NCBI GenBank assembly: GCA_021798415.1
Contig: JAJZGO010000002.1
Span: 159 to 64,158, forward strand
Source: Thermoplasmata archaeon
GTDB taxonomy: Archaea > Thermoplasmatota > Thermoplasmata > Lutacidiplasmatales > UBA184
DNA length: 64,000 bases
Direction of reading: 5' to 3'
Shown: piece after piece, positions 6,273-33,163 of the stretch
Layout of the letters: each line of letters opens with the position of its first letter
Numbering within the stretch: the first letter of the stretch is position 1
Notes under the pieces: model-generated
What the model saw: the letters and a program-made list of their open reading frames with translations, nothing else
Told to the model about the DNA's origin: nothing
Database searches by the model: none
Position numbers and translations under genes: made by a program

Positions 6273-6797
6273 ATGGAGGGACTGGTCGCGCAGCCCACCC
6301 GCCGGAAGATCGTTGACGTCGTCACCGATCACCCGGGGTCGAGCGCGCGTGAAGTGCAGCGGCGGGCCTCGCTCGGCTGGGGCGAGACCGCGTACCACTT
6401 AGACCAGCTCACGCGGGCCGGGGCGCTGCGTCGCGAGCGCGGCGGCCGCCGCGACTACTACTTCCCTTCGACGATGACCTGGGAGGACCGACGGCTGTTC
6501 CAGGTCCTCCGCAGCGGGACCGAGCGACGGCTGTTGCTCGAGCTGAGCGCGCGGCCCGGCCGCACGCTCGCCGAGCTCAAGGAGGCGACGGGGCTCAGCC
6601 TCTCCACGACCTCCTTTCACCTGCGCCACCTGCTCGCGCAGAGTGCGGTCGAGGGGTTCCGGGACGGGCACCTCCGCCGCTACCGTCCGACGCGCCCGGA
6701 ACGGGTCGCCGCCCTCGTGACGCGGTACCGCGAGTCGTTCGAGGACCGGCTCGTCGACCGGTTCGTGGAGGCCTGGAGCGGCCTCCTCGGAGCGTGA
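6273..6797 (+). CDS. Tandem winged-HTH (ArsR-like) transcriptional regulator, cassette copy A
   Basis: Two repeats of an ArsR-type wHTH, REVQRRASLGWGETAYHLDQLTRAGALRRER and LAELKEATGLSLSTTSFHLRHLLAQSAVEG. It is a clear paralog of 13837..14364. Confidence 0.75.
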   Translation: MEGLVAQPTRRKIVDVVTDHPGSSAREVQRRASLGWGETAYHLDQLTRAGALRRERGGRRDYYFPSTMTWEDRRLFQVLRSGTERRLLLELSARPGRTLAELKEATGLSLSTTSFHLRHLLAQSAVEGFRDGHLRRYRPTRPERVAALVTRYRESFEDRLVDRFVEAWSGLLGA

Positions 6798-6830
6798 GTC
6801 GATGAAGGGACGCTCTGGGCTTCGCACCAA

Positions 6831-6870
6831 CGGTTACGGGTCTTGCGCCAAAAGGGAGGTATCTCGACGA
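6831..6870 (+). promoter_or_regulatory. Conserved ~35-bp cis-element copy A (upstream of the surface-protein gene)
   Basis: TTCGCACCAACGGTTACGGGTCTTGCGCCAAAAGGGAGGT. The A-rich end (CCAAAAG) is about 26 bp upstream of ATG 6889, the spacing of an archaeal TATA box on a leaderless mRNA. The upstream 20 bp are conserved in copies B and C. Confidence 0.6.
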
Positions 6871-6888
6871 CGTCCGTGGTCGAACGTG

Positions 6889-7878
6889 ATGCCGGGTACC
6901 GGGAAACCCCTTCTGACGGCGATAGCGCTCGCCGTCGCGCTCACGATTTCGCTCGTCGGGGCCGTCGGACCGGCCATCGGTCACGGCCTCCCCGCGGCTT
7001 CGAACCGCGCCGGAGCGGCCGCGTTCTCCCTGACGAACGGTCTCGTTCGAGCTGACTTTCCGACGGCGGCGCCGTCGTTCACGCTCACGTCGGTCGCGAA
7101 CGCATCGCTCGGGCTCTCGCAGTCCCTCGGCGGGCTCGCCGAGGTGAACGGCACCGGCTACATCGTCGCCTTCGCTCTCTTCGGCGGCCCCGGGGTCGCC
7201 TGGAGCGGGTCGACCGGGGGCTCGTCCGCGTCGACCTGGGTGCATCTCGCGGCGGCCGTGCCGGCCCGTCTCGCGAGCGGCGAGTGGGAGTCGGGGGACG
7301 ACGCGCAGGAAGGCGGGAACTCCTCCCTCGGCTCGGTGAACGTCTCCCTGACGTTCACCCTGAACAGCTCGTCGGGCCCCTCGCCCACGACCGTCGGGTA
7401 CCTGCTCAACGTCACGGGCTGGCCGTGGATTTCCACGCTGGATTCCCTCGGGGTCGAGGTCCTCACGAACACGAGCGGGCCGTCCGGGTACTGGCAGTCG
7501 AACGGGGCCAACTCGATCACCGAACGCTCGAGCACGACCGGCGGCACCGTCGCGACGTACGCCTGGGGGACGTCCGCGACCGCGACGTACGCGAGCGGCC
7601 AGGAGTCGGACAGTTCCGTAGGGGCGTACCACAACGTCTCGACGAACCGGCAGAGCTCGCTCGTCCGCCTCGACTTCGGCACCGTGACCGGGGGGTACCG
7701 CTCGCTCGGCTACGACCCTTGGCTCACCCTCGTGGTCGGCAGCCCCCTCTCCCGTCTCGTGCCCGCCTGGCTCTTGGGCCCGGACGCGCTCGTCACGATC
7801 GGCGCCGGTACGGCGCTCTCGATCGCCCTCGCGGCGGTCGCGCTCCGGCGGCGCCGGGCGCCCGAGAGCGAGCTCTGA
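6889..7878 (+). CDS. Secreted Ser/Thr/Gly-rich surface protein with C-terminal TM anchor (cassette copy A)
   Basis: Signal peptide MPGTGKPLLTAIALAVALTISLVGAVGPA. Many N-x-S/T sequons (NASL, NGTG, NSSL, NVSL, NSSS, NVTG, NTSG). C-terminal TM LVTIGAGTALSIALAAVAL followed by RRRR. The ORF track's earlier ATG at 6802 would include the conserved element, so the start is uncertain. Confidence 0.65.
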   Translation: MPGTGKPLLTAIALAVALTISLVGAVGPAIGHGLPAASNRAGAAAFSLTNGLVRADFPTAAPSFTLTSVANASLGLSQSLGGLAEVNGTGYIVAFALFGGPGVAWSGSTGGSSASTWVHLAAAVPARLASGEWESGDDAQEGGNSSLGSVNVSLTFTLNSSSGPSPTTVGYLLNVTGWPWISTLDSLGVEVLTNTSGPSGYWQSNGANSITERSSTTGGTVATYAWGTSATATYASGQESDSSVGAYHNVSTNRQSSLVRLDFGTVTGGYRSLGYDPWLTLVVGSPLSRLVPAWLLGPDALVTIGAGTALSIALAAVALRRRRAPESEL

Positions 7879-13146: not shown

Positions 13147-13554
13147 GTCGGTCTTTCGTGGCTCGTTCGACTATACAAACCTAGGTGCGGCTCAGGAAAC
13201 GCCGGCACGTGGCCGGCCCCCAGGGTGCCCGCGGGTCGGCCGCGCGCCGGGCCGAGATAAGGAATCGAGCCTCGCCGGCCTTAAGCCGGCCTGGGGAGCT
13301 TTCCGACCGGGACTCTGGGGTCGCTGGAGGACCCGCCCGCCTCCCAAGGCGGATGTCGAACGCCCAGGGTCCGGAGGGTACCGACCCCGACCGCCCGCTC
13401 CCGAACCCCGGACGTGGTTCTCGGAAACTACCGAACGCGGATGCGGGCCGAGGTCCGCCGAGTAGGGTCGGTCCCTCACGAGCGTTCCGGGTCGCCCGGC
13501 CGATGTGATCGGCCGCGAACCAACTCCTTAAGCCGCGGGGCCTTCTCGGGGCCC

Positions 13555-13833
13555 GTGAGCCTCCTCGAGCTCTTCGTCGTGGTCCTGGTGACCGGCGTGG
13601 CGCTCCTGAACGCGGGGGTGCCGCTCGCCGCGTGGGCCCGCTCCCGGGACGGCCGCTTCGTCCTCTTGGCGGGAGGGAACCTCGCTCTCGCCGCATTGGG
13701 GGGCCTTTGGCTATGGGGTCAGCTTCCGGGAAGCCCTCCGCCGTATACCGAAGTCCAGCTGCCCGCGTTGTCGATCGTATTGGTCGCGGTTCTCCTCGGC
13801 CTGGCGGCCACCCTCTGGCCCCGTCATGTCTGA
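13555..13833 (+). CDS. Small 3-TM membrane protein (cassette copy B), coupled to the downstream regulator
   Basis: GTG 13555 gives VSLLELFVVVLVTGVALLNAGVPLAAWARSRDGRFVLLAGG...IVLVAVLLGLAATLWPRHV, which aligns along its length with 5981..6271. CTTAAG lies 25 bp upstream. The stop at 13833 is 3 nt before the regulator ATG at 13837. The ORF track starts earlier at 13414 with a non-hydrophobic extension. Confidence 0.5.
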   Translation: MSLLELFVVVLVTGVALLNAGVPLAAWARSRDGRFVLLAGGNLALAALGGLWLWGQLPGSPPPYTEVQLPALSIVLVAVLLGLAATLWPRHV

Positions 13834-13836
13834 GCG

Positions 13837-14364
13837 ATGGAGGAAGACCCCCTCGCTCTCGAAACGCGGCGTCGGCTGTACGAGGCGGTGCGGATGGCCC
13901 CGGGCACCGGGGCCCGCGAGGTCCAGCGCCGTGTCGGTACCGGTTGGGGCGAAACGGTGTACCACCTCGATCGTCTGACGACGTCCGGGCTGCTCCATCG
14001 GGAACGCTCGGGATATCAGGACCATTACTTCGTCGCGACGGTCCCTCTCGCGGACCGAAGCCTTCTCAAGATCACCCGCTCCCGTTCGGCGCGCCGACTT
14101 CTGATCGCCCTCCTCGAAGCCCCGGGGTCGACCGTCCCGGACCTCGAGACGCGCACCGGACTGAGCGAGGGCCGTCTCTCCGTCCATCTCCGGCGACTGG
14201 CGGAGATAAGGGTGGTGCGGACGGGACGCGCCGGCCGGCTGCGCACCTTCGAGCTCACCGACCGTGAGCGAGTCCTCCGGACGCTCGTCGCCTTCCGCCG
14301 AGGGTTCGCCGACGAGTGGATCGAGCGTACCCTCGAGACGTGGTCGGAGCTCTTTCGTCCGTAG
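13837..14364 (+). CDS. Tandem winged-HTH (ArsR-like) transcriptional regulator, cassette copy B
   Basis: AREVQRRVGTGWGETVYHLDRLTTSGLLHRER and VPDLETRTGLSEGRLSVHLRRLAEIRVVR. It is about 40% identical to 6273..6797 along the full length. Confidence 0.75.
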   Translation: MEEDPLALETRRRLYEAVRMAPGTGAREVQRRVGTGWGETVYHLDRLTTSGLLHRERSGYQDHYFVATVPLADRSLLKITRSRSARRLLIALLEAPGSTVPDLETRTGLSEGRLSVHLRRLAEIRVVRTGRAGRLRTFELTDRERVLRTLVAFRRGFADEWIERTLETWSELFRP

Positions 14365-14372
14365 CGCCGTCG

Positions 14373-14415
14373 GGTTCGGACCAACGGCTTACGGTCTTGG
14401 ACCAAAAGCAGGGAC
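14373..14415 (+). promoter_or_regulatory. Conserved ~35-bp cis-element copy C (upstream of the second surface-protein gene)
   Basis: TTCGGACCAACGGCTTACGGTCTTGGACCAAAAGCAGGGAC aligns with copy A with only a few substitutions and indels. It lies about 26 bp upstream of the candidate GTG start at 14441. Confidence 0.55.
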
Positions 14416-14440
14416 AAGGGGAACGCCCTGCTCTCCTCCG

Positions 14441-15433
14441 GTGGCCGACCGACGAACGCCCCACGGAAGTCGCCGCCGAGGCCGGTGGGACTTCCGGGCG
14501 TTCTTCGGGGTCGCCGCGACCGCGCTTGTCCTCGCGGTCACGCTCGTGCCGTTCGGGTCGGGATCCTCGCTGGGGGCGGACTGGTCCTCGACCACGCTCG
14601 CCTGGAGCAACGGCGTGACCCAGTGCATCTTCGTCCCCGGTGCCCCGACGGTCGCCGTGTCGGCGATGAGCCTCGCCGGCTCGGGTCTCTCGACGACCCT
14701 CACGTCTCTCGACGAGGTCACCGCGTCCGGCAACCTCACCGCGGTGGCGGCCCTCTCTTCGGCGACATGGAACTCGACGAACCTCAGCGGCCCGGATCGG
14801 TTCGACATGGCCTACGCCGCGGACGTGCTGATCGTCTCCCCGGTCAATCCCGCGCGGGTCCTCGGCTCGGTCGGTCTGCGAGTGGACTACCTCCTTCCCG
14901 CCTACGCGGATTCCCCTGGCGTCAACCTCCGTAACGTCACTCAGGAGGTCACCATCACGGACTGGACGTGGCAGGGAGCCGGCGACCGGCTCGCCCTTGG
15001 TGTCTCCCTTTGGCCGACGTTCACCGCGCTGGAACGTCTCACCGCCCCTTCGCCAACGAGCTATTCGGTGACGAGCGTCGAGGTCCAAACTGGGGAACCG
15101 CGGGAGTCCGTGGACCTCGGTCGGTCGGCCAACATCAGCCTCCCCGCAAATGGGACCGCGCTGGTTCCCGTTACCCCCGAGGTCCAGATCGCGGGGCAGG
15201 GCACCTACGCCTCGGTCGGCGTGTGGGTCGGCGCCGTCGCCGGAGAGTTCCGGTCGCTCTCGTACGTGTCGGTCATCTCGCTTCCCGTGCCCAAGACCCT
15301 CGCGGGACTTCCGCTCTACGACTACGCGGCCGTGGGCGGAGCGGGATTGGTCGCCGTGGCCGCGCTCGCTCTGACGGCGCGCCGAGTGCGCCGGAGACCT
15401 TCCGACCTCACCTTCGTGGAGGAGCAACTGTGA
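14441..15433 (+). CDS. Secreted Ser/Thr-rich surface protein with C-terminal TM anchor (cassette copy B)
   Basis: A GTG 14441 start gives a basic n-region plus hydrophobic core FRAFFGVAATALVLAVTLVPFG. Sequons NLTA, NSTN, NLSG, NVTQ, NISL, NGTA. C-terminal TM AVGGAGLVAVAALALTA followed by RRVRRR. The ORF track start at 14264 overlaps the regulator and is less likely. Confidence 0.6.
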   Translation: MADRRTPHGSRRRGRWDFRAFFGVAATALVLAVTLVPFGSGSSLGADWSSTTLAWSNGVTQCIFVPGAPTVAVSAMSLAGSGLSTTLTSLDEVTASGNLTAVAALSSATWNSTNLSGPDRFDMAYAADVLIVSPVNPARVLGSVGLRVDYLLPAYADSPGVNLRNVTQEVTITDWTWQGAGDRLALGVSLWPTFTALERLTAPSPTSYSVTSVEVQTGEPRESVDLGRSANISLPANGTALVPVTPEVQIAGQGTYASVGVWVGAVAGEFRSLSYVSVISLPVPKTLAGLPLYDYAAVGGAGLVAVAALALTARRVRRRPSDLTFVEEQL

Positions 15434-15653
15434 ACGACGGGGGAACGGTGGAGAAGAAGCAGGCCGACGATCGTGCGATTGCCGTGGACGAGCGAGAGCG
15501 GAGATCCCATTCGGATTCACCTTCCGGGCCTCCTCCCGCCCAAGCTTCCCGCCCCCACGGGTCGATCATCCTTCGGAGGGTCTTCGACACCTTGCGCGGC
15601 GGCCGCCGACCGCGACGCGGCCCGGTGACGGACCCGGCCCCATGGGAGGTCCC

Positions 15654-16292
15654 ATGACCGTCTCGAACGGTCGGATCGTTCCCCGGTCGGCGGGACTCCT
15701 ACGGACCCTGCTGATCGTCGGGGTGGTCGTTGGGTTGCTCGCACTCCCGCTTGCCTTGGGCCTCGATCCCACGACGCCGAGAGGTCCCCAGGAGCTTGCG
15801 CCGGCGACCACGACTGCCATCAGCGTGCAGGTAACCTCGACGCTCAAATTCACGCCGGACGTGCTGGATGTCGTCCCGGGTGCCCTCGTTCAACTCGTCG
15901 TGATCCAGGAGGCGTCGATCCCCCACACTTTCGTCCTGTCGCCCGTCGCGAACTTCACGATCCCTGCGAACGACACGCCCGCCCAGCTCTTCGAGTTCTT
16001 CAATGCCCACCCACCCCTCGTGAACCTCAGCCTGCCGGGAACCCCGGGGGCCCGAGCGTACGCGAACTTCACGGCGCCGTCGGTCGGAACGTATGAGTTC
16101 GTCTGCGAGATCCCCGGGCATTTCCAGTCCGGGATGCACGGGATTCTGGTCTCGTCGGTCGCCGCTCCGTCGAACGGATCATCGACTCTCTTTACACCGA
16201 CCGTGCTCATCGTCCTCGGCGCCGTGGTGGTCGTGGTCGGAGTCGGTTCCGGCCTCGCTCTCTGGCGACGTTCGCGGCGCTCGCCCAAGTGA
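15654..16292 (+). CDS. Type-1 (blue) copper protein, halocyanin/plastocyanin-like cupredoxin, with N-terminal signal/TM and C-terminal TM anchor
   Basis: Copper site H...C-x2-H-x4-M: HTFVL...YEFVCEIPGHFQSGMHG. N-terminal hydrophobic LLRTLLIVGVVVGLLALPLALG. C-terminal TM LIVLGAVVVVVGVGSGLALW followed by RRSRR. Confidence 0.8.
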   Translation: MTVSNGRIVPRSAGLLRTLLIVGVVVGLLALPLALGLDPTTPRGPQELAPATTTAISVQVTSTLKFTPDVLDVVPGALVQLVVIQEASIPHTFVLSPVANFTIPANDTPAQLFEFFNAHPPLVNLSLPGTPGARAYANFTAPSVGTYEFVCEIPGHFQSGMHGILVSSVAAPSNGSSTLFTPTVLIVLGAVVVVVGVGSGLALWRRSRRSPK

Positions 16293-16344
16293 GGCCTGAT
16301 GGGCCAGGGGTCTTCGGGAAACGTGGCGGCACCGGAGGGATAGA

Positions 16345-18336
16345 TTGAGCGAAGGCCCAGGAGTCGTCGACGGGGGAGGCGCGGCCCGGCGGGCGGGCGA
16401 TGGGGGTACGGAGGCTCGCCTCGAGCTCGCGGGGGGAGTCGTAGCCTACAACGAAGAGGCCCACATCCAGCGGGCTCTGGAGTCGCTCCTGGCCCAAGAC
16501 CTTCCGGACGGGGTCCGCTGGGGGCAGATCTGGGTCGTCGCGAGCGGCTGCACGGACCGAACGGTCGAGATCGCCCGGGGAGTGGCCGCCCGCGACCCGA
16601 GGGTCATGGTCGTCGTCGAGCCGGAGCGGACCGGAAAGGCGCGGGCCCTTCGCGAGATCTTCCACCGCGCCCGGGGCCACGCGGTGGTGCTCCTGAACTC
16701 GGACGCCGAGGCGGCGCCGGGAGCCGTAGCCGAACTCCTTCGGCGCGCACGAGGGCACTCCCCTCCCTACGCCGTCATGGCCCGCCCCGTCGTGTCCCCC
16801 GACGCCCCGGGTCGCATGGCCCCGCTACTGCGATTGATGTGGGACCTCCATCACGAGTTCCATCTCCACCTCGCGTCGGAAGGCGGAGGAGCTCACCTCT
16901 CCGACGAGCTTCTCCTCGTCAGCCTCGACCCTCACCCGCCGCTTCCGGAGGGGATCGTCAACGACGGCTCGTACTTCGGGGTCTGGCTGGCGCAGCACGG
17001 AGGGCGACGACTCTACGCGCCCGGGGCCCGCGTGCAGATCGCGATCCCGACGCGACTCACGGACCACCTCCACCAGCGCCGGCGGATCCACGTCGGGAAC
17101 TCCCAGGTCACCGCGGCCCTCGGTCGACGGCCGAGCACCCTCGTGGGACACGCGCGGTCTACGCCGGGCGCGGTGGCGAGGGTGGTCCAGCGATCGGCGC
17201 GCCGTCAGACCCGGGGCTGGCGACGGTTCGTGGCGCTGACGGCCCTCGAGCTCGCGGCGGCTACCCTCTCCTTCTGGGACCGACTGCCCCCGCCGAAGGA
17301 CCACGTCCGCTGGCAGCGGATCCGACCCCCGGCTCCGCGAACCGCCCCTCGCTCGCTCTCGCGCGCTCGTCTCTCGCACAACGCGAGGGGACTGACCGCC
17401 CCGCCTCTCGAGCTGCGGGTAGCGACCTTGGTGGACGTGGCGGCGCGATTCGGGACGGGCATCGCGCTGCCGGACCTCATCTCCCTCCTCCCTCCCGACG
17501 GGCCCTTTACGCCGGGGGACACTCGGGGCTGGCTGGAAGGCCATCCCAGCCTCGCGCGAGTGGACGGTGACCTGGTCCTTGCCCCACGCGCGACCACGGT
17601 CGGGCAGGACGAGCGGCGGACCCGAGGAGAGGCGTCCCTTCGCCACGCGCTCGGGCTGTTCAACGGACCGCTTCGACCGACCCGCAATTGGGTTCGCTGC
17701 GTCTCCGTCACCGGCTCGGTCGCCTACGGCGAGCCGCAGCCGGAGGACGACCTGGACCTGTTCGTGGTCGTTCGAAAGGGGGCGCTTTGGTGGTTCCTGG
17801 GCTACACGTACCTGGCCCTGCGGATCGAGCGGTGGCGTCGGGGCCGCGGGTTCGGACCGGTCGCGTGCTTCAATTACACGATCGAGGACTCGACGGCCGC
17901 CGAGGCACTGACCGAACGCCGTGACTTCCTGACGGCCCGCGACGCGCTCTCGGCGAAGCCTATCCTGGGAGCGTCCTACTATCAGGGACTCCTCGCCCGC
18001 TGCCCGTGGATGGCCACCGAGATCCCGCGATTGTATGCGGTCCGCGCTCGACCTTCCGACGACCCCGATTCCCTCCCCGCGCCGATCGCGCTCCGGGTCG
18101 CGGACGCGGTCGTCTACCCTCTCCTCGCGACGTACCTTCAATTGGCCGGTCTCTGGAGGAACGCGCGGAATCGTTCCAACGAGACCGGGGCCTTCCGGAC
18201 GGTGACGCGATTGGGACGCATCGCCTTCGTTTCCCGTCGATTCGAGGCTCTCCGTTCCCAGTACGTGGAAGGGCGCGAGCCGTCGGAGGCATCGACGGGG
18301 GTAACGTATCCGTCGGCGCTCCCGTCCGCCCGATGA
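16345..18336 (+). CDS. GT2 glycosyltransferase fused to a C-terminal minimal (Pol-beta-type) nucleotidyltransferase domain
   Basis: N-terminal GT-A domain GGVVAYNEEAHIQRALESLLAQ...VLLNSDAE. C-terminal segment VTGSVAYGEPQPEDDLDLFVVV matches the G[SG]x9-13DxD nucleotidyltransferase signature. No in-frame stop separates the two domains. Confidence 0.7.
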   Translation: MSEGPGVVDGGGAARRAGDGGTEARLELAGGVVAYNEEAHIQRALESLLAQDLPDGVRWGQIWVVASGCTDRTVEIARGVAARDPRVMVVVEPERTGKARALREIFHRARGHAVVLLNSDAEAAPGAVAELLRRARGHSPPYAVMARPVVSPDAPGRMAPLLRLMWDLHHEFHLHLASEGGGAHLSDELLLVSLDPHPPLPEGIVNDGSYFGVWLAQHGGRRLYAPGARVQIAIPTRLTDHLHQRRRIHVGNSQVTAALGRRPSTLVGHARSTPGAVARVVQRSARRQTRGWRRFVALTALELAAATLSFWDRLPPPKDHVRWQRIRPPAPRTAPRSLSRARLSHNARGLTAPPLELRVATLVDVAARFGTGIALPDLISLLPPDGPFTPGDTRGWLEGHPSLARVDGDLVLAPRATTVGQDERRTRGEASLRHALGLFNGPLRPTRNWVRCVSVTGSVAYGEPQPEDDLDLFVVVRKGALWWFLGYTYLALRIERWRRGRGFGPVACFNYTIEDSTAAEALTERRDFLTARDALSAKPILGASYYQGLLARCPWMATEIPRLYAVRARPSDDPDSLPAPIALRVADAVVYPLLATYLQLAGLWRNARNRSNETGAFRTVTRLGRIAFVSRRFEALRSQYVEGREPSEASTGVTYPSALPSAR

Positions 18337-19283
18337 CGAACGGCGACGCGCACGAGTCCGTCAGCGACTACGCGCGGTTCGACTTCGCGGCGCAATGGCG
18401 GGGTCGGGAAAGGGTCACCGAGGTGGAGCGGGCGATCGTCTCGCGCCAGCTGGGCTCGGCGGACCGACGACGGATCCTCGAGCTGGGCACGGGCTTCGGG
18501 CGGCTCCTCAGCGCCCTCACCGAGCTCGGCGGAGAGGTCGTCGCCACCGACTTCGACGTCGAGAGCCTGAACGGTCTGCCCGCGAGAGCCGGGTCGAGTC
18601 GGCCCCTGCGCGTCGCGGCGAACATCTACCACCTGCCGTTCGTGGACGGGGCGTTCACGAGCGCGTCGATGGTCCGGGTCTACCACCACCTCTCGGATCC
18701 GGTGGCCGCCCTGGCCGAGGTCGGCCGCGTCCTCCGGGGCGGAGGCCGATTCCTCGTCTCGTACAACCCGAAGCCCACGCTCGGGACGCTCGTCAACGAC
18801 ATCCAACGCGCGATCCATCCGTCCCCCCGCACGCGATTCCGGTCGACCACGTTCGCCCGAGGGCCCGTCACGCTCGACCCCGAACCGTTCCCGGTGTACG
18901 TCGCGAGCCGCCGCGAGTTCGAGCGGACCGTACGGGCGGTCGGGTTCCGGCCGGTCAGCGAGGTCGTCTCGGGCCTGGAGGAGTACTACCTGATGCGACG
19001 CGTCCCCGCGGGCGTGTTCGTCCGGCTCGGGAGCGCCCTCGGCCGGGCGCCGGCCTTTCCCGCCCGGTTCGCCGTGCTGGAAAAGGACCAACGGCCCGGA
19101 GCGTCGCTCCCCGACCTCGAACGGATCCTCGCGTGTCCTCGATGCCGGACTCCGTTCTCCCCCGGGAGCGGCGATGGCCCACCGGTCTCTTGTGCGTGCG
19201 GGTATCGGGGAACGATCCGGGGAGCCGTCCTCGACCTCCGCTATGTCCCCGAGGGGGTCCGGCGGTGGGAGGCCCCGACGTGA
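18333..19283 (+). CDS. Class I SAM-dependent methyltransferase with C-terminal Trm112-like zinc ribbon
   Basis: ILELGTGFGRLL (motif I) ... VATDFD ... RVLRGGGRFLVS. C-terminal CPRCRTPFS...CACGY. The ATG at 18333 overlaps the upstream stop as ATGA. Confidence 0.7.
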   Translation: MTNGDAHESVSDYARFDFAAQWRGRERVTEVERAIVSRQLGSADRRRILELGTGFGRLLSALTELGGEVVATDFDVESLNGLPARAGSSRPLRVAANIYHLPFVDGAFTSASMVRVYHHLSDPVAALAEVGRVLRGGGRFLVSYNPKPTLGTLVNDIQRAIHPSPRTRFRSTTFARGPVTLDPEPFPVYVASRREFERTVRAVGFRPVSEVVSGLEEYYLMRRVPAGVFVRLGSALGRAPAFPARFAVLEKDQRPGASLPDLERILACPRCRTPFSPGSGDGPPVSCACGYRGTIRGAVLDLRYVPEGVRRWEAPT

Positions 19284-19689
19284 GCGGGACCCCGGAAGCC
19301 GGGCCCGGCGGCCGCCTCGGACGCGGGCCGTCGAGCCCCGAACGCACGAGCAGTTCCTGGGGAGGGAGCTCTACGGCCATCTCTCCTCTCTCCCCCACTT
19401 GGGGATCGAGGTCACACGTCCAGGGTAAGCCGGAAGTTTGCCCAACTTGTCACAAGACGGAAAACTTGGCGACGGCCACCAACTCCTCGGGCGGGTCGGA
19501 GCACTGAAGCGCCGAGTCGAGCGCCTCGGCGACGTGCCCTCGGCGGCTCTATGCCATGACGACAACCGCGTGCGAAGCCGGGGGAATGGCCGGGACGGCC
19601 CGGCATCGGGCTCGGGGCCTGCCGGAGCGTCCGGGAAGTCCGCCTCCCGGGACTCCAACGGAGGAGAGGGGAGGACCTTCGAAACTCAG

Positions 19690-20889
19690 TTACGCCCCTC
19701 CGTTCCCAGTCGAGGGGGCCCGGGGCGAGACTTCCCGAAAGAGCTGAACGTATTCCGCCGCCACGACCGACCAATCGAACCGGGCGGCACGCTCGCGCCC
19801 TGCGGCGCCGAAGCGCACCCGAAGCTCCGGGTCCGCGAGGACGGTCCGGATCCCCTCGGCGAGCGCCGCGGGATCCTCGGGAGGCACCAGTAGGCCGCTC
19901 CTTCCCTCCTCCACGGCCTCGGGGACGCCTCCGACCCGCGTGGCCACGACCGGTAGCCCGGCCGCCATTGCCTCGAGCACGACCACGGGAAAGGAATCGA
20001 ATCGTGAGGGGAGCACGAGGAGCTCCGCGGAGGCGTACTCCTCGACGAGGCGCTCGCGCGAGACGGCGCCCAGCGCCTCCATGCGGTCCGATACCCCGAG
20101 CGATCGGGCCAACGCCAGCGTGGAGTCGAGACCCCCCCAGTCCGCCCCGACCAATCGGAGGCGGGAACGGAACCCTCGAGGGACCTTGGCGAACGCCCGT
20201 ACGAGAGTCCCGAGGCCCTTCTGCTGGGCGCTGAGTCGGCCCACGAATAGTATCACCGGCTCCTCCGCAGGTTTCAAGCGCGCCGGCAACGCTGCGAACT
20301 CTCCGACATCGATCCCGGGCGGGATCACACGGATCCGCTCGCGAGGAGCCCCGAGGCCGGCGAGCCAATCCCGCTCGAGGCGGCTTAGGGCCACGATCCG
20401 GTCCGCACTTCGGACGGAGGTTCGAACCACGTATCGGGACCAGACCCTGGCGACCGGAGTTCCGGACCCGGGGTCCGAGTGCGTCGTGACGACGAGCGGA
20501 GTTCCTCGAAGTGCCTGGGTGAGCGCGCCGACCCACAGAGGAAAGTGACCGAACGCGTGGGCGTGCACGACATCAACGGGCGAGCGGAGCGCGTCGAGGA
20601 CCATCCCGGGCACGACGACACCGGAACCGTGAGGCATCGGGGCCGCGAGATACGCCCGATGTCTTCGAACCGCGACCGGGCCCGAGCCCGGAGAGAACTG
20701 ACCGCGGGTCATGGGCTGGTCGCGCGCAAGGTCCGAGGTGGAGACCTCTACGCGGGCCCCTGCGCTCGTGAGTTCCTTCGCAAGCCGCTCCACATACCGT
20801 TCCACGCCCCCGAGGGCCGGGGCGAACCGTTGGGTGAGCTCGAGGACGCGCAACCCGGCGAGCGGTCCCCGAGCCCCGTACCCGTTCAC
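19690..20889 (-). CDS. GT4 (group 1) glycosyltransferase
   Basis: GT4 N-domain LRVLELTQRFAPALGGVERYVERLAKEL and C-domain EPVILFVGRLSAQQKGLGTLVRAF...LVLPSRFDSFPVVVLEAMAAGLPVVATRVGGVPE. GTG start at 20889, 21 bp after the stop of the upstream membrane protein. The ORF track merges this gene into a 1137-aa read-through ORF. Confidence 0.8.
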   Translation of the reverse strand: MNGYGARGPLAGLRVLELTQRFAPALGGVERYVERLAKELTSAGARVEVSTSDLARDQPMTRGQFSPGSGPVAVRRHRAYLAAPMPHGSGVVVPGMVLDALRSPVDVVHAHAFGHFPLWVGALTQALRGTPLVVTTHSDPGSGTPVARVWSRYVVRTSVRSADRIVALSRLERDWLAGLGAPRERIRVIPPGIDVGEFAALPARLKPAEEPVILFVGRLSAQQKGLGTLVRAFAKVPRGFRSRLRLVGADWGGLDSTLALARSLGVSDRMEALGAVSRERLVEEYASAELLVLPSRFDSFPVVVLEAMAAGLPVVATRVGGVPEAVEEGRSGLLVPPEDPAALAEGIRTVLADPELRVRFGAAGRERAARFDWSVVAAEYVQLFREVSPRAPSTGNGGA

Positions 20890-20909
20890 GGCCCTGCCTT
20901 CGGGGGGGC

Positions 20910-22238
20910 TCAAGGTCGAGCCCGGGACCCCACGACGAAGATCCACGGGCGGGGATGGCCTTCGTCTCGGTAGATGGCAACGATCCACTGGACCAGCGTG
21001 ACGGTCACCATGACGGCAAGGGCCGCGAGCGCGAAAGTCCGGGCCGCTCCCCAACCGCCGCTCTGATCGATCGACGTGGTGAAGGTGAGAATCCCCGGGT
21101 CGGCCGGGGCAAGAAAGCGCATCCCAAGATCGTTGTTCACCAGCAGGTATAGCATGGAAAGGGCCACCGTGAACCACAGAAGTGCCCTCCGACCGGGGTG
21201 GAAGGTCGCGGCGTCCAGAGCAGCCGGAGCGAACAGGAAGAGCATGTACTGCTCGTAGAGACCCCACCGAAGCAAGAGAAAGGCGGTGACGATCAGCATC
21301 AGGGCTCGAAGCTCCGACCGGGCGTCGTTTTCGCTCACCCATCTCGCCGCGGCCCATCCGGCGACGATCACGCCGGGTATCCAGGCGTACTGGACCAGGG
21401 TGTAGAAGCCGGGCACGAGGGAGAGGACGGAGACCACGTAGGGTAGGCTGAGGAGGAAGGCGAGGTTCATGCCGAGCCCTCCGCCGTGAACTTGGGAGCC
21501 GGACACGGGTCCGAGGAATGCGATCGACCACCCTTCGGCGGCGAAGGCGAGTGCGGTGAGCGCGGCCGGCACTGCGAGCGCGGTCAGCATCGCGAGGCGA
21601 CGGAAGCGGCGCTCGCGCAGGAACTCGAGAGGCAGGAAGATGACGGTGACCCACTTCGCGAAAATCCCGATGCCGTAGAGAACGTTCCGCGACAACGACC
21701 CTCGGAACCACAGCGTGCCGAGGAGCACCAGAACTACGATCGAGTCGAACTGCCCCCAAATCGCCGTGATGATTACCGCATACGAGAAGAACGACCAGAA
21801 GACGAGGAGACCCAGAGCGGCCCGCTCGTCGAACGCCCATCGAAGGGCGAGCCGGTAGAGAATGTAGGCGGTCCCGACGTCCGCCAGGATCCCGGGTTGC
21901 TTCAGAAGGAAGTAGAGGACGAAGCGGTTCCCTCCACCGACGAAGTCCCACAGCCGGTAGAGCCCTCCGAGCGTCAGCGGCCACAACGGCAGGTACGACG
22001 CCGAGGAGATGCTCGCCGAAGTGTAGGAGAAGCTGACACCGGGGACCGCGGGCAAGAACCCGTTGTACGGGTTCGCCCCTCGGGAGACCTGGTAGCCGGT
22101 TCGGATCCAAACCTCGAAGTCGTAGGGGTGTCCCGTCCAGAACGAGAACAGCTCTCGCAGGAGCAGGCCCCCTAGGAGGAACGTCCCAGCCCTCGAGGAG
22201 AGAGCCCGAGCTAGTGCGGGAACGGGACCAGATGGCAT
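20910..22238 (-). CDS. Polytopic membrane protein, probable GT-C-fold glycosyltransferase (DUF2029 / ArnT / PMT-like)
   Basis: 442 aa with about 10-12 TM helices, rich in W/F/Y, and a periplasmic-loop pattern resembling GT-C mannosyltransferases. Directly upstream of GT4 on the same strand. Confidence 0.6.
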   Translation of the reverse strand: MPSGPVPALARALSSRAGTFLLGGLLLRELFSFWTGHPYDFEVWIRTGYQVSRGANPYNGFLPAVPGVSFSYTSASISSASYLPLWPLTLGGLYRLWDFVGGGNRFVLYFLLKQPGILADVGTAYILYRLALRWAFDERAALGLLVFWSFFSYAVIITAIWGQFDSIVVLVLLGTLWFRGSLSRNVLYGIGIFAKWVTVIFLPLEFLRERRFRRLAMLTALAVPAALTALAFAAEGWSIAFLGPVSGSQVHGGGLGMNLAFLLSLPYVVSVLSLVPGFYTLVQYAWIPGVIVAGWAAARWVSENDARSELRALMLIVTAFLLLRWGLYEQYMLFLFAPAALDAATFHPGRRALLWFTVALSMLYLLVNNDLGMRFLAPADPGILTFTTSIDQSGGWGAARTFALAALAVMVTVTLVQWIVAIYRDEGHPRPWIFVVGSRARP

Positions 22239-22340
22239 CGGCTGGGAGACGGAACCCGGGGGCGGCCAAATAGCCCTCGGTAACGCGGCGGAGCATCCCG
22301 CGTCTTCGTCCGCTCACGGCGAAGCGCGGGGCGACGACCT

Positions 22341-23513
22341 CTAGAGTCGAGTGTACAACAGCGACACCCACTCGGAGGCCGCCCAGGAGTACCGCCGGTC
22401 CGCCAGGAAGGCATCCCATCGACGGACTTTCTCCGAGCCGCTCTTCCCGAGGAGCCGGACGATGCGGTCGGAGTCGAACGGCGGGGCGAGGACCGATACG
22501 GAACCGGTCGAGCTCCGGCGGAATCCTTCCGAGAGGGCGCGGTCCCACTCCCGCGGGGTCCGCAGGTGCAGCGCGAGCGGATAGCGGATTCCGCCGGGAG
22601 GGACTTCGTGGCGGGTGCGATTGATGGCCGCGCGGGGGCGACCGAGGGCGAGGTCCCAGAAGAACGGGACCACGCCGGGCCGATTGAGCGAGGTGAACAG
22701 GAGCTTGCCGCCGGGGCGGAGGAGCCTCCGGAGGGCCGCCACTCCTACGTCCGGTTCGAGATTGAACGCTCCGAACGCCGAGAATGCCGCCGCGAAGTTT
22801 CCGTCCGGGATGTCTCGGAGGTCGGTTTCCAGGTCGGCGAGTCTCGCGGTTCGAGTCTCGAGCCGGTCCCCGTAGCCGCGTCGGTCGGCGGAAAGCCGCA
22901 AACGATCGAGCATGCCCTCCGAGAGATCGATCGCGGTGACCCGATGTCCGGCCGCGAGCAGAGGGAGCGTGTGGTAACCCGTGCCGGAGCCGATCTCGAG
23001 GATGGGATCGGAGCCCGAGAGCGAACTCGTGGCGATCGCGACAACCCGGTCCTTCAGGTAGCGATCGATTGGCTTCCGGGCCAGGGCCCCATCGTATCCC
23101 CAAGACACCGCATCAAACTCGCCGCGGATCCGGTCGGCCGTGGTCGAGGTTCTCGGTGCCACACCGGAGAAAACCTGGAGCGCCTCGCGCATCCTGTCGA
23201 AATGCTCCGTCCAGACGACCGCTCCGTACTTGGATTCAAACAGACTCCGGATCTGCTCGAGAGCTTCCGGACTACGGACGATCGCCACCAGCGAGGACAT
23301 CTCCCGTCCGTTCGGGAAACGGATCCGGCATCCTCCCTCGCGAACCGCCGCCGAAAACCACGCCGCGGGCGAATCGCTCGGTATCACGTAGACGGAGTCG
23401 GCGTCCTCCACGAACAGCAGAGGCACCGACGGGCCGGTCCCCGCCGTGAGGAGAAGATGGTCACGGGGGTCCGCTCGCGGGCGGTCCTCACCACCGGTGC
23501 CGGCCCGGTTCAC
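22341..23513 (-). CDS. Class I SAM methyltransferase, possibly with an N-terminal PNPOx-like (DUF385 / deazaflavin-dependent nitroreductase-like) domain
   Basis: MTase core EFDAVSWGYDG...ILEIGSGTGYHTLPLLAAGHRVTAIDLSEGML...LRPGGKLLFTS. The upstream in-frame segment DHLLLTAGTGPSVPLLFVEDADSVYVIPSDSPAAWFSAAV...SLFESKYG resembles DUF385. A GTG at 23513 forms a GTGA overlap with an upstream small ORF. If the N-domain is spurious the MTase starts at ATG 23192. Confidence 0.5.
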   Translation of the reverse strand: MNRAGTGGEDRPRADPRDHLLLTAGTGPSVPLLFVEDADSVYVIPSDSPAAWFSAAVREGGCRIRFPNGREMSSLVAIVRSPEALEQIRSLFESKYGAVVWTEHFDRMREALQVFSGVAPRTSTTADRIRGEFDAVSWGYDGALARKPIDRYLKDRVVAIATSSLSGSDPILEIGSGTGYHTLPLLAAGHRVTAIDLSEGMLDRLRLSADRRGYGDRLETRTARLADLETDLRDIPDGNFAAAFSAFGAFNLEPDVGVAALRRLLRPGGKLLFTSLNRPGVVPFFWDLALGRPRAAINRTRHEVPPGGIRYPLALHLRTPREWDRALSEGFRRSSTGSVSVLAPPFDSDRIVRLLGKSGSEKVRRWDAFLADRRYSWAASEWVSLLYTRL

Positions 23514-23659
23514 GGTCCGTGAGGGTAGAGCTCCGAGATGAGCGAAAGGACCTTCGGCGTGCTGTACCCGGCCCGCGCGACGACCCGGTCGCGGGTCCGG
23601 ATCTTCTTTAGCCCGATGAACCGCTTCGACGCGATGAAGAGATAGGAATAGGTCTTCAT
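23513..23659 (-). CDS. Small ORF (49 aa) in a locally AT-richer patch, GTGA-coupled to the downstream gene
   Basis: MKTYSYLFIASKRFIGLKKIRTRDRVVARAGYSTPKVLSLISELYPHGP. Its stop overlaps GTG 23513 of the next gene. Codon usage is atypical for this genome (tat, tcc, cta, aag). No recognisable family. Confidence 0.3.
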
Positions 23660-24115
23660 CGTGACCGCGAAAATCGCCCCCTGGGGCTCGAGCAGGACCT
23701 TGATCGTCCGTCGCTCGGAGATCCAACGGGGCGGCACGCTTTGTGGGACCGCTTCCCAAGAGATAAAGTTGAAGGGGAGGGCCGGGTCGCATCCCCGAGC
23801 CACGCAGGAGCGGCCCCCGGAGGGAGGACGCTCCGATCGGGTCCTCGAAGCCGTGTGCAGAGCGACGATGCGCGGGCCCGGCTTCGGTTGACCGGACCTT
23901 CGCGCATGGACCGTGAAAAGTACCTCGTCCGGCTATTCGTCGATGACGACTTCGAGCCCACTCCATCCAGTTCGCCGCGTGCTTCGTTCGGTCGACCCCA
24001 CCGACCCGCAGTCCAACGGACCCCCCCCTCGCTCGACGGCGGACGACGGAGCGCGGGCCGGAGCGCGACCATGCTCCCGACGAATATTTGACACACGGAC
24101 GCCGTAGGGAGAGCC

Positions 24116-24499
24116 ATGGCGCGACCGATCGCGGCCGGGGCGCTCACGATCCTCGGCGGGCTCTTCATCATGGCGGGCGGTGCGGTCCTCGCGTTCATCG
24201 GGGGCGTCCTCGCGGCCGTCCTGGGCGTCTTCAGCGGCCTCTTCCTCCTCGGGCTGGTGGTCGGGTTCCTCACGTTTCTCGTGGGGATCCTGATGCTCGC
24301 GCTCCCGTCGGCCCACACACTCCTCGGGATCGTGGTCATCCTGTTCGCCTTTGTGAGCATCCCGTTCGCGTTCGGTGGCCTGATCGTGGGGTTCTTCCTT
24401 GCGCTGACCGGCGGGATCCTGGCCGTCGCCTGGCATCCTCCGCAACCTTCCCCCGCGATCACGGTCGAGGGACGGGTGGTCTCCCCGCCGGCCCCGTAG
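24116..24499 (+). CDS. Small polytopic membrane protein (4 TM), unknown function
   Basis: 127 aa, almost entirely hydrophobic helices (LTILGGLFIMAGGAVLAFIGGVLAAVLGVFSGLFLLGLVVGFLTFLVGILML...). Confidence 0.5.
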   Translation: MARPIAAGALTILGGLFIMAGGAVLAFIGGVLAAVLGVFSGLFLLGLVVGFLTFLVGILMLALPSAHTLLGIVVILFAFVSIPFAFGGLIVGFFLALTGGILAVAWHPPQPSPAITVEGRVVSPPAP

Positions 24500-24622
24500 G
24501 CCGGTCGCGAGTTCCGCGCCCTGCCCGGCCTCTAGCCCCCGCCTCGGCGACCGACCCGGGTCGGGGGAGTTCGCTCGCGGGGTTCGGGTCGAGCGTCAAG
24601 GAAGCCTCATCTTCCGGCGAGA

Positions 24623-31582: not shown

Positions 31583-31732
31583 CCTCCCGACCTATCAGCG
31601 GCCCCCTTTAAGCGGTTTTACCGGCCCATATCGGGCCCCGGGGGGCCCGGGACCCTCCCCCCGTGAGTCGGTTTCGCAAGGACTATAGCGCACGAGCCGT
31701 TGGGACTCCGGGGCGAAGCCCCGGGTGGTCGG

Positions 31733-32608: not shown

Positions 32609-33163
32609 ATGGCGACGAGCGCTCGACCCGTCGCCCCGGCGGCTTCCCTTACCTCGGCCGGCGGCCCGACCTCTCGGATCCAGGTCACCGTCAACGGTCG
32701 GTCGGTCGTCGCCGAGGTCGAGCCGCGGACCCTCCTGGTCCACTTCCTGCGCGAGGTCCTCGGGCTCACCGGGACCCACATCGGCTGCGACACCTCCCAC
32801 TGCGGGGCGTGCACCGTCCACCTCGACGGCAAGCCGGTGAAGTCGTGCACCGTCCTGGCGGTCCAGGTGAGCGGACGCGAGGTCCGTACCGTCGAGGGCC
32901 TCGAGGTCGACGGGAAGCTTTCTCCGGTCCAGGAGGCGTTTGTCGAGGCGCACGGGCTCCAGTGCGGGTTCTGCACGCCCGGCATGATGATGACCGCGAC
33001 CGCGCTCCTCGCGCGAAACCCGAACCCGACGGACGCCGAGACCCGGGACGCGATCCGGGGCAATCTCTGCCGGTGCACGGGCTACGTGAACATCGTGAAG
33101 GCGATCCAGCTCGCGGGCAAGAAGATGCAATCCGCGAGCTCGGCGCCGGGAGGCAAGCCGTGA
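32609..33163 (+). CDS. coxS: CO dehydrogenase small subunit ([2Fe-2S]), CoxS
   Basis: [11 protein letters not shown] (plant-type [2Fe-2S]) and [10 protein letters not shown]...CRCTGY (second cluster). Confidence 0.9.

Follow-up and report, generated by a model that had tools for sequence, protein, structure and literature searches.

A fused GT2 glycosyltransferase and predicted Pol-beta-fold nucleotidyltransferase in Thermoplasmata, and the archaeal gene pair to which it is related

The window analysed here, a stretch of 64,000 nucleotides from a Thermoplasmata archaeon, carries a gene whose product joins a GT2 glycosyltransferase (module 1) to a second, C-terminal module with the features of a nucleotidyltransferase (NTase; module 2). 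It lies among genes for methyltransferases, a further glycosyltransferase and a polytopic membrane protein. The features of the locus are as follows.

16345..18336, forward strand: the whole fusion gene (GT2, linker, wHTH and NTase), 663 aa, TTG start with GGAGGG 6 nt upstream
16417..17280, forward strand: GT2 (GT-A) module, aa 25-312, recognized by Pfam, phmmer, Foldseek and AF2
17281..17400, forward strand: poorly conserved linker of ~40 aa (aa 313-352), predicted to be disordered (pLDDT <50) and variable in alignment A1
17404..17580, forward strand: predicted winged-helix domain (three helices and a beta-hairpin in the AF2 secondary structure), aa 354-412, with a conserved LLPxxxP..W
17605..17967, forward strand: predicted NTase core (AF2 pLDDT ~80-96; Foldseek; NTP_transf_2 below threshold)
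17707..17772, forward strand: hG[GS]...[DE]h[DE]h motif VTGSVAYGEPQPEDDLDLFVVV, aa 455-476, placed by sequence, alignments and AF2
17884..17886, forward strand: E514, putative third catalytic carboxylate (h[DE]h) within C508-x-N510-xxx-E514, at the end of beta-3 (strand 507-514)
17971..18270, forward strand: predicted C-terminal helical domain with beta-hairpin, aa 543-642, followed by a disordered tail ending in Arg (AF2, alignments)
18333..19283, forward strand: class I SAM methyltransferase, 316 aa, with a C-terminal Cys4 ribbon (Methyltransf_11, E=5.7e-15)
19690..20889, reverse strand: GT4 glycosyltransferase, 399 aa (Pfam Glycos_transf_1, E=1.8e-40)
20910..22238, reverse strand: polytopic membrane protein, 442 aa, at least 7 TM-like segments, whose orthologues have weak GT87 (GT-C) Pfam matches
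22341..23513, reverse strand: MTase2, a methyltransferase of ~390 aa with an N-terminal split-barrel-like domain and a GTG start at 23513
23513..23737, reverse strand: conserved basic ORF of 74 aa, translationally coupled to MTase2

A preliminary description of this locus had proposed a fusion of two domains in a 663-aa protein with a GSx(10)DxD-type motif, while allowing for a frameshift artefact with a stop expected in the linker. The open reading frame at 16345..18336 does encode this motif, and the fusion is genuine: a search for homologues returned 179 matches, and at least 120 clusters, with 46-98% identity and 86-100% coverage, retain GT2 and NTase over more than 85% of the length. The taxon-named homologues among the matches listed are all Thermoplasmata MAGs. 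The GC content by codon position is unbroken along the whole gene, and the linker (aa 313-352) contains neither a stop nor an in-frame ATG, GTG or TTG that could serve as an internal start. Whether relatives are fused or split has a mixed answer, since the fusion is conserved and homologues are nevertheless often encoded by two genes; the split form is the ancestral arrangement and not the sign of an artefact.

The assignment of the N-terminal part to GT2 stands. It matches Pfam PF00535 with 74.2 bits (E=1.5e-20), far above the cut-off of 23.3, and PF13641 with 57 bits (cut-off 27, E=3.8e-15). Its best phmmer match in the PDB is PcManGT, the GT2 mannosyltransferase of Pyrobaculum calidifontis (6yv7; E=2e-5), which also heads the Foldseek matches (E=2e-12), followed by hyaluronan synthases; 363 PDB matches were obtained at E<=1e-3, and the AF2 pLDDT is ~90-97. 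A cellulose-synthase-like motif set is present, with I replacing the W of QxxRW: YNEE (N36-E-E), D120-A-E, the TED-like S186-D187-E188 and the QxxRW-like Q244-R-R-R-I248. D120, E188, Q244, R247 and I248 are invariant in alignments A1 and A4, and D187 in A1 only. Module 1 is an inverting GT2 of the PcManGT/minimal cellulose-synthase-like type. It has the D, DxD, TED-like and QxxRW-like motifs in common with PcManGT and with cellulose/hyaluronan-synthase-like GT2s, and PcManGT is its nearest relative in sequence and fold, but the identity between the two is ~20% and the window protein has QRRRI, with I for W. Unlike these enzymes, it lacks hydrophobic TM helices and bears the NTase module at its C-terminus. 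Judged by its hydrophobicity, the weakly hydrophobic helix that ends module 1 (aa 291-312; maximum Kyte-Doolittle value 1.07) is not a classical TM helix. Module 1 is, moreover, strongly basic, with a pI of ~10. The enzymes of the cluster have pI values of 9.6-10.5 versus 5.3-7.7 for metabolic enzymes; a high pI and the lack of a TM helix suggest a membrane-peripheral character for the fusion protein.

In the preliminary description, the C-terminal 250 aa were considered to be a minimal NTase of Pol-beta type. The type agrees with the predicted fold and with the conservation of all three catalytic carboxylates; the size and the word 'minimal' do not hold. The non-GT2 module covers ~290 aa (aa 354-642); in the AF2 model, it begins with a winged helix, continues with the NTase core and closes with a helical domain that includes a beta-hairpin, so that both an N- and a C-terminal domain are added to the core. 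The neighbours examined included no HEPN partner. The model of the C-terminal part reaches a pLDDT of 82 and a pTM of 0.79, versus a pTM of 0.53 for the full-length protein, in which a confident contact between modules 1 and 2 is not predicted. Two independent AF2 runs gave the same core elements (H421-440, E450-456, H457-460, E470-476, H481-499, E507-514 and H515-524). Nearly all of the best 50 of 220 Foldseek matches of module 2 in the PDB are NTase-fold proteins, led by AadA ANT(3'')(9), MNT antitoxins, ANT(9), ANT(4'), LinB, GlnE and DrrA. Module 2 is thus predicted to have the Pol-beta NTase fold. Its resemblance to characterized NTases is at the superfamily level only, with a best Foldseek E of 0.017, TM-scores of 0.2-0.5 and a best sequence E of 0.021 that concerns GS..DxD only. 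Conservation extends to the flanking domains: in alignment A1, L381, L382 and P387 of the winged helix are invariant, and P383 and W396 nearly so, and in the C-terminal domain this applies to W555, Y597, N606 and F617 and, nearly, to R618 and T619.

The motif positions agree with the published definition of the NTase fold (PMC2794190). T456-G457-S458 stands where the short second helix of the core (H457-460) begins, its G and S being invariant in alignments A1 and A3, and D469-L-D471-L lies at beta-2 (strand 470-476) and is likewise invariant; the catalytic Asp residues, whose absence on closer alignment would have spoken against an NTase, are therefore in place. Of 23 diverse members, 22 have an acidic residue at position 514, and I513-E514-D515 closes strand 507-514. 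Among 150 family representatives, 144 have GS..DxD and 141 the extended pattern with the third carboxylate; GS..DxD is also present in 40/40 relatives from Nitrososphaerota, and the catalytic residues (G457/S458, D469/D471 and acidic 514) are kept down to 22% identity. By contrast, the bare motif hG[GS]x9-13[DE]h[DE]h is not significant alone, with one occurrence in the 17.4k residues of window proteins versus 0.83 expected in shuffles; the support for the NTase assignment comes from conservation and predicted fold instead. As modelled, module 2 appears to carry a complete two-metal active site formed by G457-S458, D469, D471 and E514.

Two groups of known NTases were compared with module 2. 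The aminoglycoside and lincosamide enzymes AadA ANT(3'')(9), ANT(9), ANT(4')/KNTase and LinB resemble module 2, as modelled, in that helices follow the Pol-beta NTase core and that the active site is formed by GS, DxD and a third carboxylate, and they nucleotidylate hydroxyls of sugar-like substrates. The best Foldseek match of module 2 is a structure of AadA (5lpa; E=0.017, prob 0.91, 207 aligned columns). AadA matches as a whole have E=0.017-0.03, a TM-score of 0.23-0.29 and an rmsd of ~13 A over 207 columns, and they are not accompanied by a sequence match; for this group of enzymes, TM-scores are ~0.24-0.31. In contrast to these enzymes, with which it has no sequence likeness past the motif, the window protein additionally possesses a winged helix on the N-terminal side of the core and a beta-hairpin on the C-terminal side, and its gene is archaeal, chromosomal and paired with or fused to GT2, and is not a resistance gene. 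In the MNT antitoxins (MntA, 1wot; NTP_transf_2, PF01909), the motif GSxAxGxxxxxxDxDhhh and its spacing are identical to those of module 2, and the only sequence-level matches of module 2 are of this kind (1wot, E=0.021 with a family profile; PF01909, best E=0.0023). NTP_transf_2 matches 14 of 19 members, always below threshold (16.2-17.4 bits versus a cut-off of 21), and the match covers 27 residues round the motif; fold matches include 7ae9, 7bxo and 6m6u. However, MNT antitoxins are single domains of 100-140 aa, whereas module 2 has three sub-domains in ~290 aa, and the context in the window is neither toxin-antitoxin nor defence. We considered and rejected module 2 as the MNT of a HEPN-MNT pair: PF01909 remains below the gathering score, the module is too large, and among the neighbours of the NTase gene in 15 loci, which include GT2, methyltransferases, GT-C and GT4, no HEPN Pfam match was listed.

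Module 2 is a member of an unnamed archaeal family found in Thermoplasmatota and Nitrososphaerota, with 3158 representatives at E<=1e-3 and 199 cluster representatives at E<=1e-30. Its relatives are mostly standalone proteins of ~315 aa annotated only as 'hypothetical'; there is no Pfam or NCBIfam model for the family, and an NCBIfam search with module 2 gave no match. In Thermoplasmata and Nitrososphaerota, the NTase gene adjoins an orthologous GT2 gene and the gene of a ~390-aa methyltransferase with its ~75-aa ORF, often together with GT-C and GT4 genes. Among split loci, a GT2 gene is near the NTase gene in seven and immediately adjacent in five of those; the adjacent GT2s of the four split loci tested are orthologues of module 1, and in one split locus (L012) the two genes follow the same order as in the fusion and overlap by 4 nt. 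As the standalone NTase lies beside an orthologous GT2 in most lineages, the window gene represents an old gene pair that has become fused in a particular clade, and because the two modules are separate neighbouring genes in other archaea, they almost certainly cooperate in building a cell-surface glycan. A second type of fusion, between the NTase and MTase2 (P0131), was found on one contig.

The ATG of the ribbon methyltransferase, at 18333, overlaps the stop of the fusion gene in an ATGA, as the preliminary description stated. The pair was proposed there to act probably on one substrate, but this enzyme is a partner in a subclade only (L005, L006 and L011). The methyltransferase that accompanies the NTase family widely is MTase2. 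It was matched in 13 of the 13 loci compared, matches the gene that follows the fusion in L001 with E=1e-40, and is 41% identical to the methyltransferase half of P0131. The 74-aa ORF follows MTase2 and not the NTase gene across loci. The ribbon enzyme ends in CPRC...CAC, and its 59%-identical orthologue in L006, with the same 4-nt overlap, in CPRC...CAAC. This resembles the CPxC...C(x1-2)C of Trm112-type zinc ribbons placed at the end of Methyltransf_11 enzymes, except that Pfam Trm112p matches the ribbon of the orthologue only, below the cut-off (E=0.012), and not that of the window; the four Cys are kept in both. Orthologues of the window GT4 adjoin the module 2 gene in two loci (L003 and L009), and cluster content across loci comprises GT4, GT-C/DUF2079, CesA-like GT2 and methyltransferases. 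The family shows no consistent linkage to a gene for making a dedicated nucleotide-activated donor.

We are highly confident of the structural and evolutionary statements, namely that the fusion is real, that there are two folds and a conserved active site, and that the gene pair is present in two phyla. The fusion gene appears to encode a genuine two-module enzyme that takes part in assembling a lipid-linked glycan (or a glycolipid). At the cytoplasmic face of the membrane, module 1 would most likely transfer a hexose from an NDP-sugar onto a lipid-linked acceptor. Tethered to it by ~40 disordered residues, module 2 would use Mg2+ and a nucleotide donor to place a nucleotidyl group (NMP from NTP) or a phospho-linked group on the sugar or lipid intermediate handled by module 1, at one of its hydroxyls. 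The methyltransferases of the cluster could then modify the product further, and the neighbouring GT4 and GT-C proteins could extend or transfer it. Aminoglycoside and lincosamide nucleotidyltransferases provide a precedent, as they put NMP from NTP onto sugar hydroxyls; we know of no described archaeal modification consisting of a nucleotidylated glycan. That the lipid-linked glycan of the GT2 receives a nucleotidyl or phospho-linked group through module 2, in a scheme whose chemistry, donor, acceptor and order of steps we infer, is a tentative proposal with a little less than an even chance of being right.

The preliminary description also envisaged an action like that of LicD/fukutin-type phosphotransferases, which add phospho-alcohol substituents to glycans. 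In this reading, the donor of module 2 would be an alcohol or sugar activated by an NDP (CDP-glycerol, CDP-ribitol, CDP-choline or GDP-hexose), whose phospho-alcohol or phospho-sugar would be put on the glycan with release of NMP. LicD, fukutin and FKRP are glycan-acting enzymes of the NTase fold, their chemistry departs from nucleotidyl transfer solely in the phosphate attacked, and PF04185 phosphoesterase genes are present in two related loci. To our knowledge, however, the GS-to-DxD spacing is longer in LicD than the 11 residues of module 2, which fit MNT/ANT. Pfam LicD (PF04991) was matched by 0 of 19 members at E<=1, FKRP/LicD structures are absent from the best 50 of 220 Foldseek matches in the PDB, and a CDP-alcohol cytidylyltransferase is not consistently linked to the family. 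Membership of module 2 in this group is not supported, and we regard a phosphotransfer of this type as unlikely. These NTase-fold glycan decorators (group XXIII; Kuchta et al., 2009) nevertheless offer the closest functional analogy for a combination of GT-A and NTase fold: some of them have a predicted N-terminal GT2-like domain (PMC2794190), and LicD-family enzymes are employed in capsule and teichoic acid pathways (PMC11666461), both of which count in favour of such a phosphotransfer. The GT2-like domain predicted in that group has been described as probably inactive, whereas the window GT2 has an intact set of catalytic motifs. The metal and nucleotide ligands of module 2 would be equally conserved if it were a nucleotide-binding regulatory domain. 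It could NMPylate a protein (the GT2, MTase2 or the 74-aa protein), or gate the GT2 by binding a nucleotide or making a signal. GlnE, DrrA and MntA NMPylate proteins and PilZ gates BcsA. Foldseek matches to GlnE, DrrA, MntA, HalB and CD-NTases (E 0.03-0.4), the winged helix ahead of the core, the conserved 74-aa protein and a long flexible tether suited to action in cis or in trans are consistent with such a role. Yet the constant partners are glycan enzymes and not signalling proteins, the 74-aa ORF accompanies MTase2 rather than the NTase gene, neither a HEPN partner nor a receiver-type domain was found, and the GlnE/DrrA-type matches are not better than those to small-molecule NTases; the probability of a regulatory role thus appears small.

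It is improbable that module 2 makes the donor of the GT2, as a sugar-1-phosphate nucleotidylyltransferase of Pol-beta fold (sugar-1-P + NTP -> NDP-sugar + PPi) from which the NDP-sugar would be channelled to module 1. The reaction would be a standard nucleotidyl transfer, pairing a donor-maker with a donor-consumer is metabolically sensible, and one related locus has a PGM/PMM gene at its margin. On the other hand, the characterized enzymes known to us have a Rossmann-like fold and not the Pol-beta fold, there is no sign of sugar-phosphate binding in the model or the matches of module 2, and the tether offers no fixed channel. The existence of each half as a standalone protein, and of sequence-level matches to MNT-type models only, might suggest an assembly or frameshift artefact, or a functionless, decayed MNT remnant of a toxin-antitoxin or defence system. 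This is highly improbable, as at least 120 clusters, drawn from many independent assemblies, keep the fusion down to 46% identity, codon-position GC is continuous and the linker devoid of stops and internal starts, the active site and ~20 further positions are invariant, PADLOC/PHROG searches gave nothing beyond the motif, and no HEPN neighbour was found.

Extending the proposal of a nucleotidyl or phospho-linked group, it is tempting to suggest that the wHTH-NTase module represents a previously unrecognized archaeal enzyme class which, together with GT2, attaches a substituent through a phosphodiester, either to a lipid-linked glycan or to the head groups of tetraether glycolipids, a suggestion that we consider rather unlikely as a whole. 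Such a substituent could be a nucleotide cap, a phospho-sugar or a phospho-alcohol, without an assigned biosynthetic enzyme; hexose-phosphohexose-type head groups are one candidate product, as pure speculation. Archaeal surface glycans and glycolipids bear many unusual substituents that lack assigned enzymes. The family is tied to a specific GT2 by conserved adjacency and natural fusion. Its tie to one particular methyltransferase consists in co-location at 13 of the 13 loci compared and in one fusion on a single contig. These three or four proteins form a concrete and testable set for a new step of glycan or lipid modification. If module 2 acts on glycans, it would lengthen the short list of carbohydrate-acting NTase-fold enzymes (ANTs, LicD/fukutin); if it is regulatory, it would represent a new mode of control over a membrane glycosyltransferase.

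The window, whose G+C content is about 70%, encodes in a single reading frame a GT2 glycosyltransferase joined to a Pol-beta-fold nucleotidyltransferase (NTase):

16345-18336, + strand: GT2-NTase ORF, 663 aa, with a TTG start six bases after GGAGGG

This fusion is genuine. Among 5.8 billion protein clusters searched, 179 relatives came up, and the 120 listed ones (46-98% identity, 571-741 aa) align at 86-100% coverage, which reaches at least 90% in 118 of them; the taxon-named relatives among the matches listed are all Thermoplasmata MAGs. G+C by codon position is uniform along the whole gene. A check for internal start sites found no in-frame ATG, GTG or TTG in the linker, and the closest in-frame candidates sit in the winged-helix domain, within its first helix; a separate C-terminal module produced from an internal start was rejected on this ground. 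The frameshift artefact considered in the preliminary description is therefore contradicted by broad conservation, uniform codon-position composition and the linker devoid of starts. The distribution of the fusion and of its family was drawn from protein searches; a genome search with the single fusion protein returned only a near-identical genome, Thermoplasmata archaeon YP4.bin89.

The full-length AF2 model, built from a 48-sequence alignment (pLDDT 83.6), comprises two well-folded modules separated by a disordered and poorly conserved stretch (aa 313-352, pLDDT <50), and its pTM of 0.53 reflects modules without confident packing on each other. Module 1 (aa 25-312) is the GT2 (PF00535, 74 bits). 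PcManGT (6yv7) is its best PDB match both by sequence (E=2e-5) and by fold (Foldseek, E=2e-12), followed in the fold search by the Chlorella-virus and Xenopus hyaluronan synthases. The cellulose-synthase-like motif set is kept (D120-A-E, S186-D-E, Q244-RRR-I), and the GT2 looks catalytically complete. A classical transmembrane (TM) helix is absent from module 1, the last helix reaching a maximal Kyte-Doolittle value (KD) of 1.07. Transmembrane anchoring of the fusion protein was rejected, as no segment reaches KD 1.6, a value attained by at least 7 segments of a 442-aa neighbour used as positive control. Apart from its lack of TM helices, module 1 is an ordinary PcManGT-like enzyme.

Module 2, also modelled alone (AF2, pLDDT 82, pTM 0.79), surrounds its NTase core with two further elements:

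aa 354-412: winged helix (AF2 model)
aa 543-642: helical domain and beta-hairpin (AF2 model), with a disordered tail after it

The tail (18271-18336, + strand) has a final Arg in 81 of the 120 listed homologues, often as ..PSRxPxxR, which could serve as a short motif for docking or processing.

The NTase motif VTGSVAYGEPQPEDDLDLFVVV occupies aa 455-476. In bare form it has a single match in 17.4k residues, where shuffled proteins lead one to expect 0.83, and is not significant alone; the case for module 2 therefore rests on conservation and fold. In the predicted structure, the short second helix of the core opens with G457-S458, strand 2 holds D469 and D471, and strand 3 ends in E514; this layout of GS, DxD and third carboxylate is the one by which the NTase superfamily is defined (PMC2794190). 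The catalytic Asp residues, whose absence would have undermined the preliminary description, are present: G457-S458, D469, D471 and E514 are invariant across 48 fused homologues, 22 of the 23 sequences in an alignment reaching down to 22% identity have an acidic residue at position 514, and of 150 family representatives 144 contain GS..DxD (all but one of the six that lack it are short fragments), as do all 40 Nitrososphaerota relatives. The pattern of conservation indicates strong purifying selection on this active site, and in the model the NTase looks catalytically complete.

The top 50 Foldseek matches of module 2 in the PDB are almost exclusively NTase-fold proteins, including AadA ANT(3'')(9), minimal nucleotidyltransferase (MNT) antitoxins, ANT(9), HalB, ANT(4') and LinB, and likewise GlnE, DrrA, Cid1 and CD-NTases. 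Although AadA is among the top folds, the likeness to ANT/KNTase enzymes is weak, as are all these matches (best E=0.017, TM-scores 0.2-0.5); against BFVD only weak viral NTases were returned. Sequence matches are confined to the motif (1wot, E=0.021; PF01909, E=0.0023 or worse, under the cut-off), and searches of PDB, Pfam, NCBIfam, PADLOC and PHROGs gave motif-level MNT matches or none. All four structural and sequence hallmarks being present in the model, module 2 is probably a member of the NTase superfamily. The fold and motif proposed in the preliminary description thus stand, and its assignment to the MNT family does not.

Searched against 1.84 billion representatives, the module 2 profile matched 3158 proteins at a threshold of E<=1e-3; tightening this to E<=1e-10 left 652, and E<=1e-30 left 199. 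Among the best 150 relatives, 112 are proteins of 290-399 aa that mostly match the near-full module and are therefore standalone; the 15 of at least 600 aa comprise 14 GT2-NTase fusions and one NTase-methyltransferase fusion. Module 2 is a separate family and the GT2-NTase fusion is derived. All members are labelled 'hypothetical protein' in their source names. Where a host is named, it is a Thermoplasmata or Nitrososphaerota/Thaumarchaeota MAG, except for one labelled Methanobacteriota/Euryarchaeota.

In seven loci with a standalone NTase (L007, L008, L009, L012, L013, L014, L015), a GT2 gene of 287-327 aa directly adjoins the NTase gene in five (L007, L008, L012, L013, L014) and lies farther away in two, within ~2.6 kb (L015) and ~7.2 kb (L009). 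The three Nitrososphaerota loci have GT2 and then NTase on the same strand, in the order of the fusion, with a 4-nt overlap in L012; the order is reversed in L008. The adjacent GT2s tested in four split loci are orthologues of module 1 (31-42% identity) and share with it ExxRxGK, D120, SDEL, VND, QRRRI and W323.

Further partners of the pair are represented in the window by the following genes:

18333 (ATG), + strand: class I ribbon methyltransferase, 316 aa, Methyltransf_11 E=5.7e-15
22341-23513, - strand: MTase2, a methyltransferase of ~390 aa with an N-terminal split-barrel-like domain, GTG start
23513-23737, - strand: conserved 74-aa basic ORF containing …WISERRTIKVLLEPQGAIF…ARAGYSTPKVLSLISELYP

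GT2, NTase and MTase2 co-occur in 13 of 13 loci by tblastn, the Nitrososphaerota MTase2 matches having just 24-26% identity; a polytopic GT87/GT-C-like protein is found in 9 of 13 and a conserved ~75-aa ORF in 6 of 13. The 74-aa ORF, for which Pfam, PDB and PHROG searches gave no match, directly adjoins an MTase2-type gene in two archaeal phyla, upstream of it in Thermoplasmata-type loci and downstream in L012; the window copy has a stop codon that shares 1 nt with the MTase2 GTG. The ribbon methyltransferase, whose ATG overlaps the fusion stop as ATGA, ends in CPRC...CAC, and an orthologue at 59% identity retains the four Cys and the 4-nt overlap. This coupled methyltransferase was seen in closer relatives only (L005, L006, L011). 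The gene downstream of the fusion in L001, L003 and L010 is of the MTase2 type, and a ribbon assignment for these distant relatives proved wrong.

One protein from outside the window (P0131, 739 aa) joins the NTase module to MTase2 and not to GT2, its methyltransferase half being 41% identical (E=3e-75) to MTase2 of the window. It may be a second natural fusion, or else a read-through introduced by gene calling; because it comes from one short contig (3.8 kb), it is supporting evidence only. Two loci with a standalone NTase carry, adjoining MTase2, a gene for a phosphoesterase of PF04185, the phospholipase C / acid phosphatase family (L008, 4711-6339; L009, 4958-6433), which could bear on a phosphodiester intermediate.

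In the window, the cluster runs GT2-NTase (+), ribbon methyltransferase (+), GT4 (-), GT-C-like (-), MTase2 (-) and 74-aa ORF (-), a context of glycan or glycolipid assembly. Nearby lie:

4116-5864, - strand: CesA-like GT2, 582 aa
8899-13146, - strand: thermopsin and NosD/beta-helix surface protein, 1415 aa

The surface protein has several NxS/T sequons and a C-terminal TM segment, keeps its place next to the cluster in relatives and is a plausible candidate for glycosylation. Third-codon G+C is ~0.73-0.83 in most glycan-cluster genes called (13400-24000) versus ~0.9 in most genes of the adjacent flanks. Cluster products have a pI of 9.6-10.5, against 5.3-7.7 for metabolic enzymes in the window; since the glycan enzymes are all equally basic, we rejected a pI of ~10 as evidence of nucleic-acid binding. 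Basic, TM-less proteins are expected of enzymes at the inner membrane surface. Two alike gene pairs on the + strand (6273-6797 / 6802-7878 and 13837-14364 / 14264-15433) each encode an HTH_HVO_0163-type regulator and then an unannotated protein of ~360-390 aa; many relatives show synteny between the second pair and the GT2-NTase gene. Farther on, a 548-aa MobA-like NTP transferase, XdhC and YHS domain fusion (37707-39353, - strand) adjoins genes for a xanthine/CO-dehydrogenase-type molybdoenzyme (31700-35517) and a MoaA-like radical SAM protein (30608-31582). In the nearest genome (YP4.bin89, L005, JAKAWX010000002.1; NTase module 98% identical), gene order past the ribbon methyltransferase differs from window 19300-24500, and GT4 and the 74-aa ORF are absent within the flank, which points to a different strain or to a rearrangement in the recent past.

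Because its constant partners are glycan enzymes and its active site appears to be under strong purifying selection, we tentatively favour, at somewhat short of an even chance, that the NTase module would carry out two-metal transfer of a nucleotidyl or phospho group onto a hydroxyl of the intermediate handled by the GT2. Such chemistry would resemble that of ANT enzymes on aminoglycoside sugars, or of LicD/fukutin on glycans. The LicD-type variant, counted within this transfer reading and raised in the preliminary description, is unlikely: none of 19 module 2 members matched PF04991 at E<=1, and FKRP is not among the top 50 PDB fold matches. A regulatory or protein-NMPylating role for module 2 is likewise improbable, and synthesis of the GT2 donor by module 2 very unlikely. 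We regard an artefact, or the remnant of a decayed toxin-antitoxin system, as effectively ruled out.

A GT2-like and NTase architecture was predicted by Kuchta et al. for some LicD-group proteins (PMC2794190). The window fusion recalls it but differs in that its GT2 appears active and its NTase belongs to another family. The literature yielded nothing specific on a GT2-NTase pair or on the module 2 family in Thermoplasmata. Both the family and the gene pair are, as far as we could find, without prior description, and GT2-NTase is a natural fusion of this conserved archaeal gene pair.
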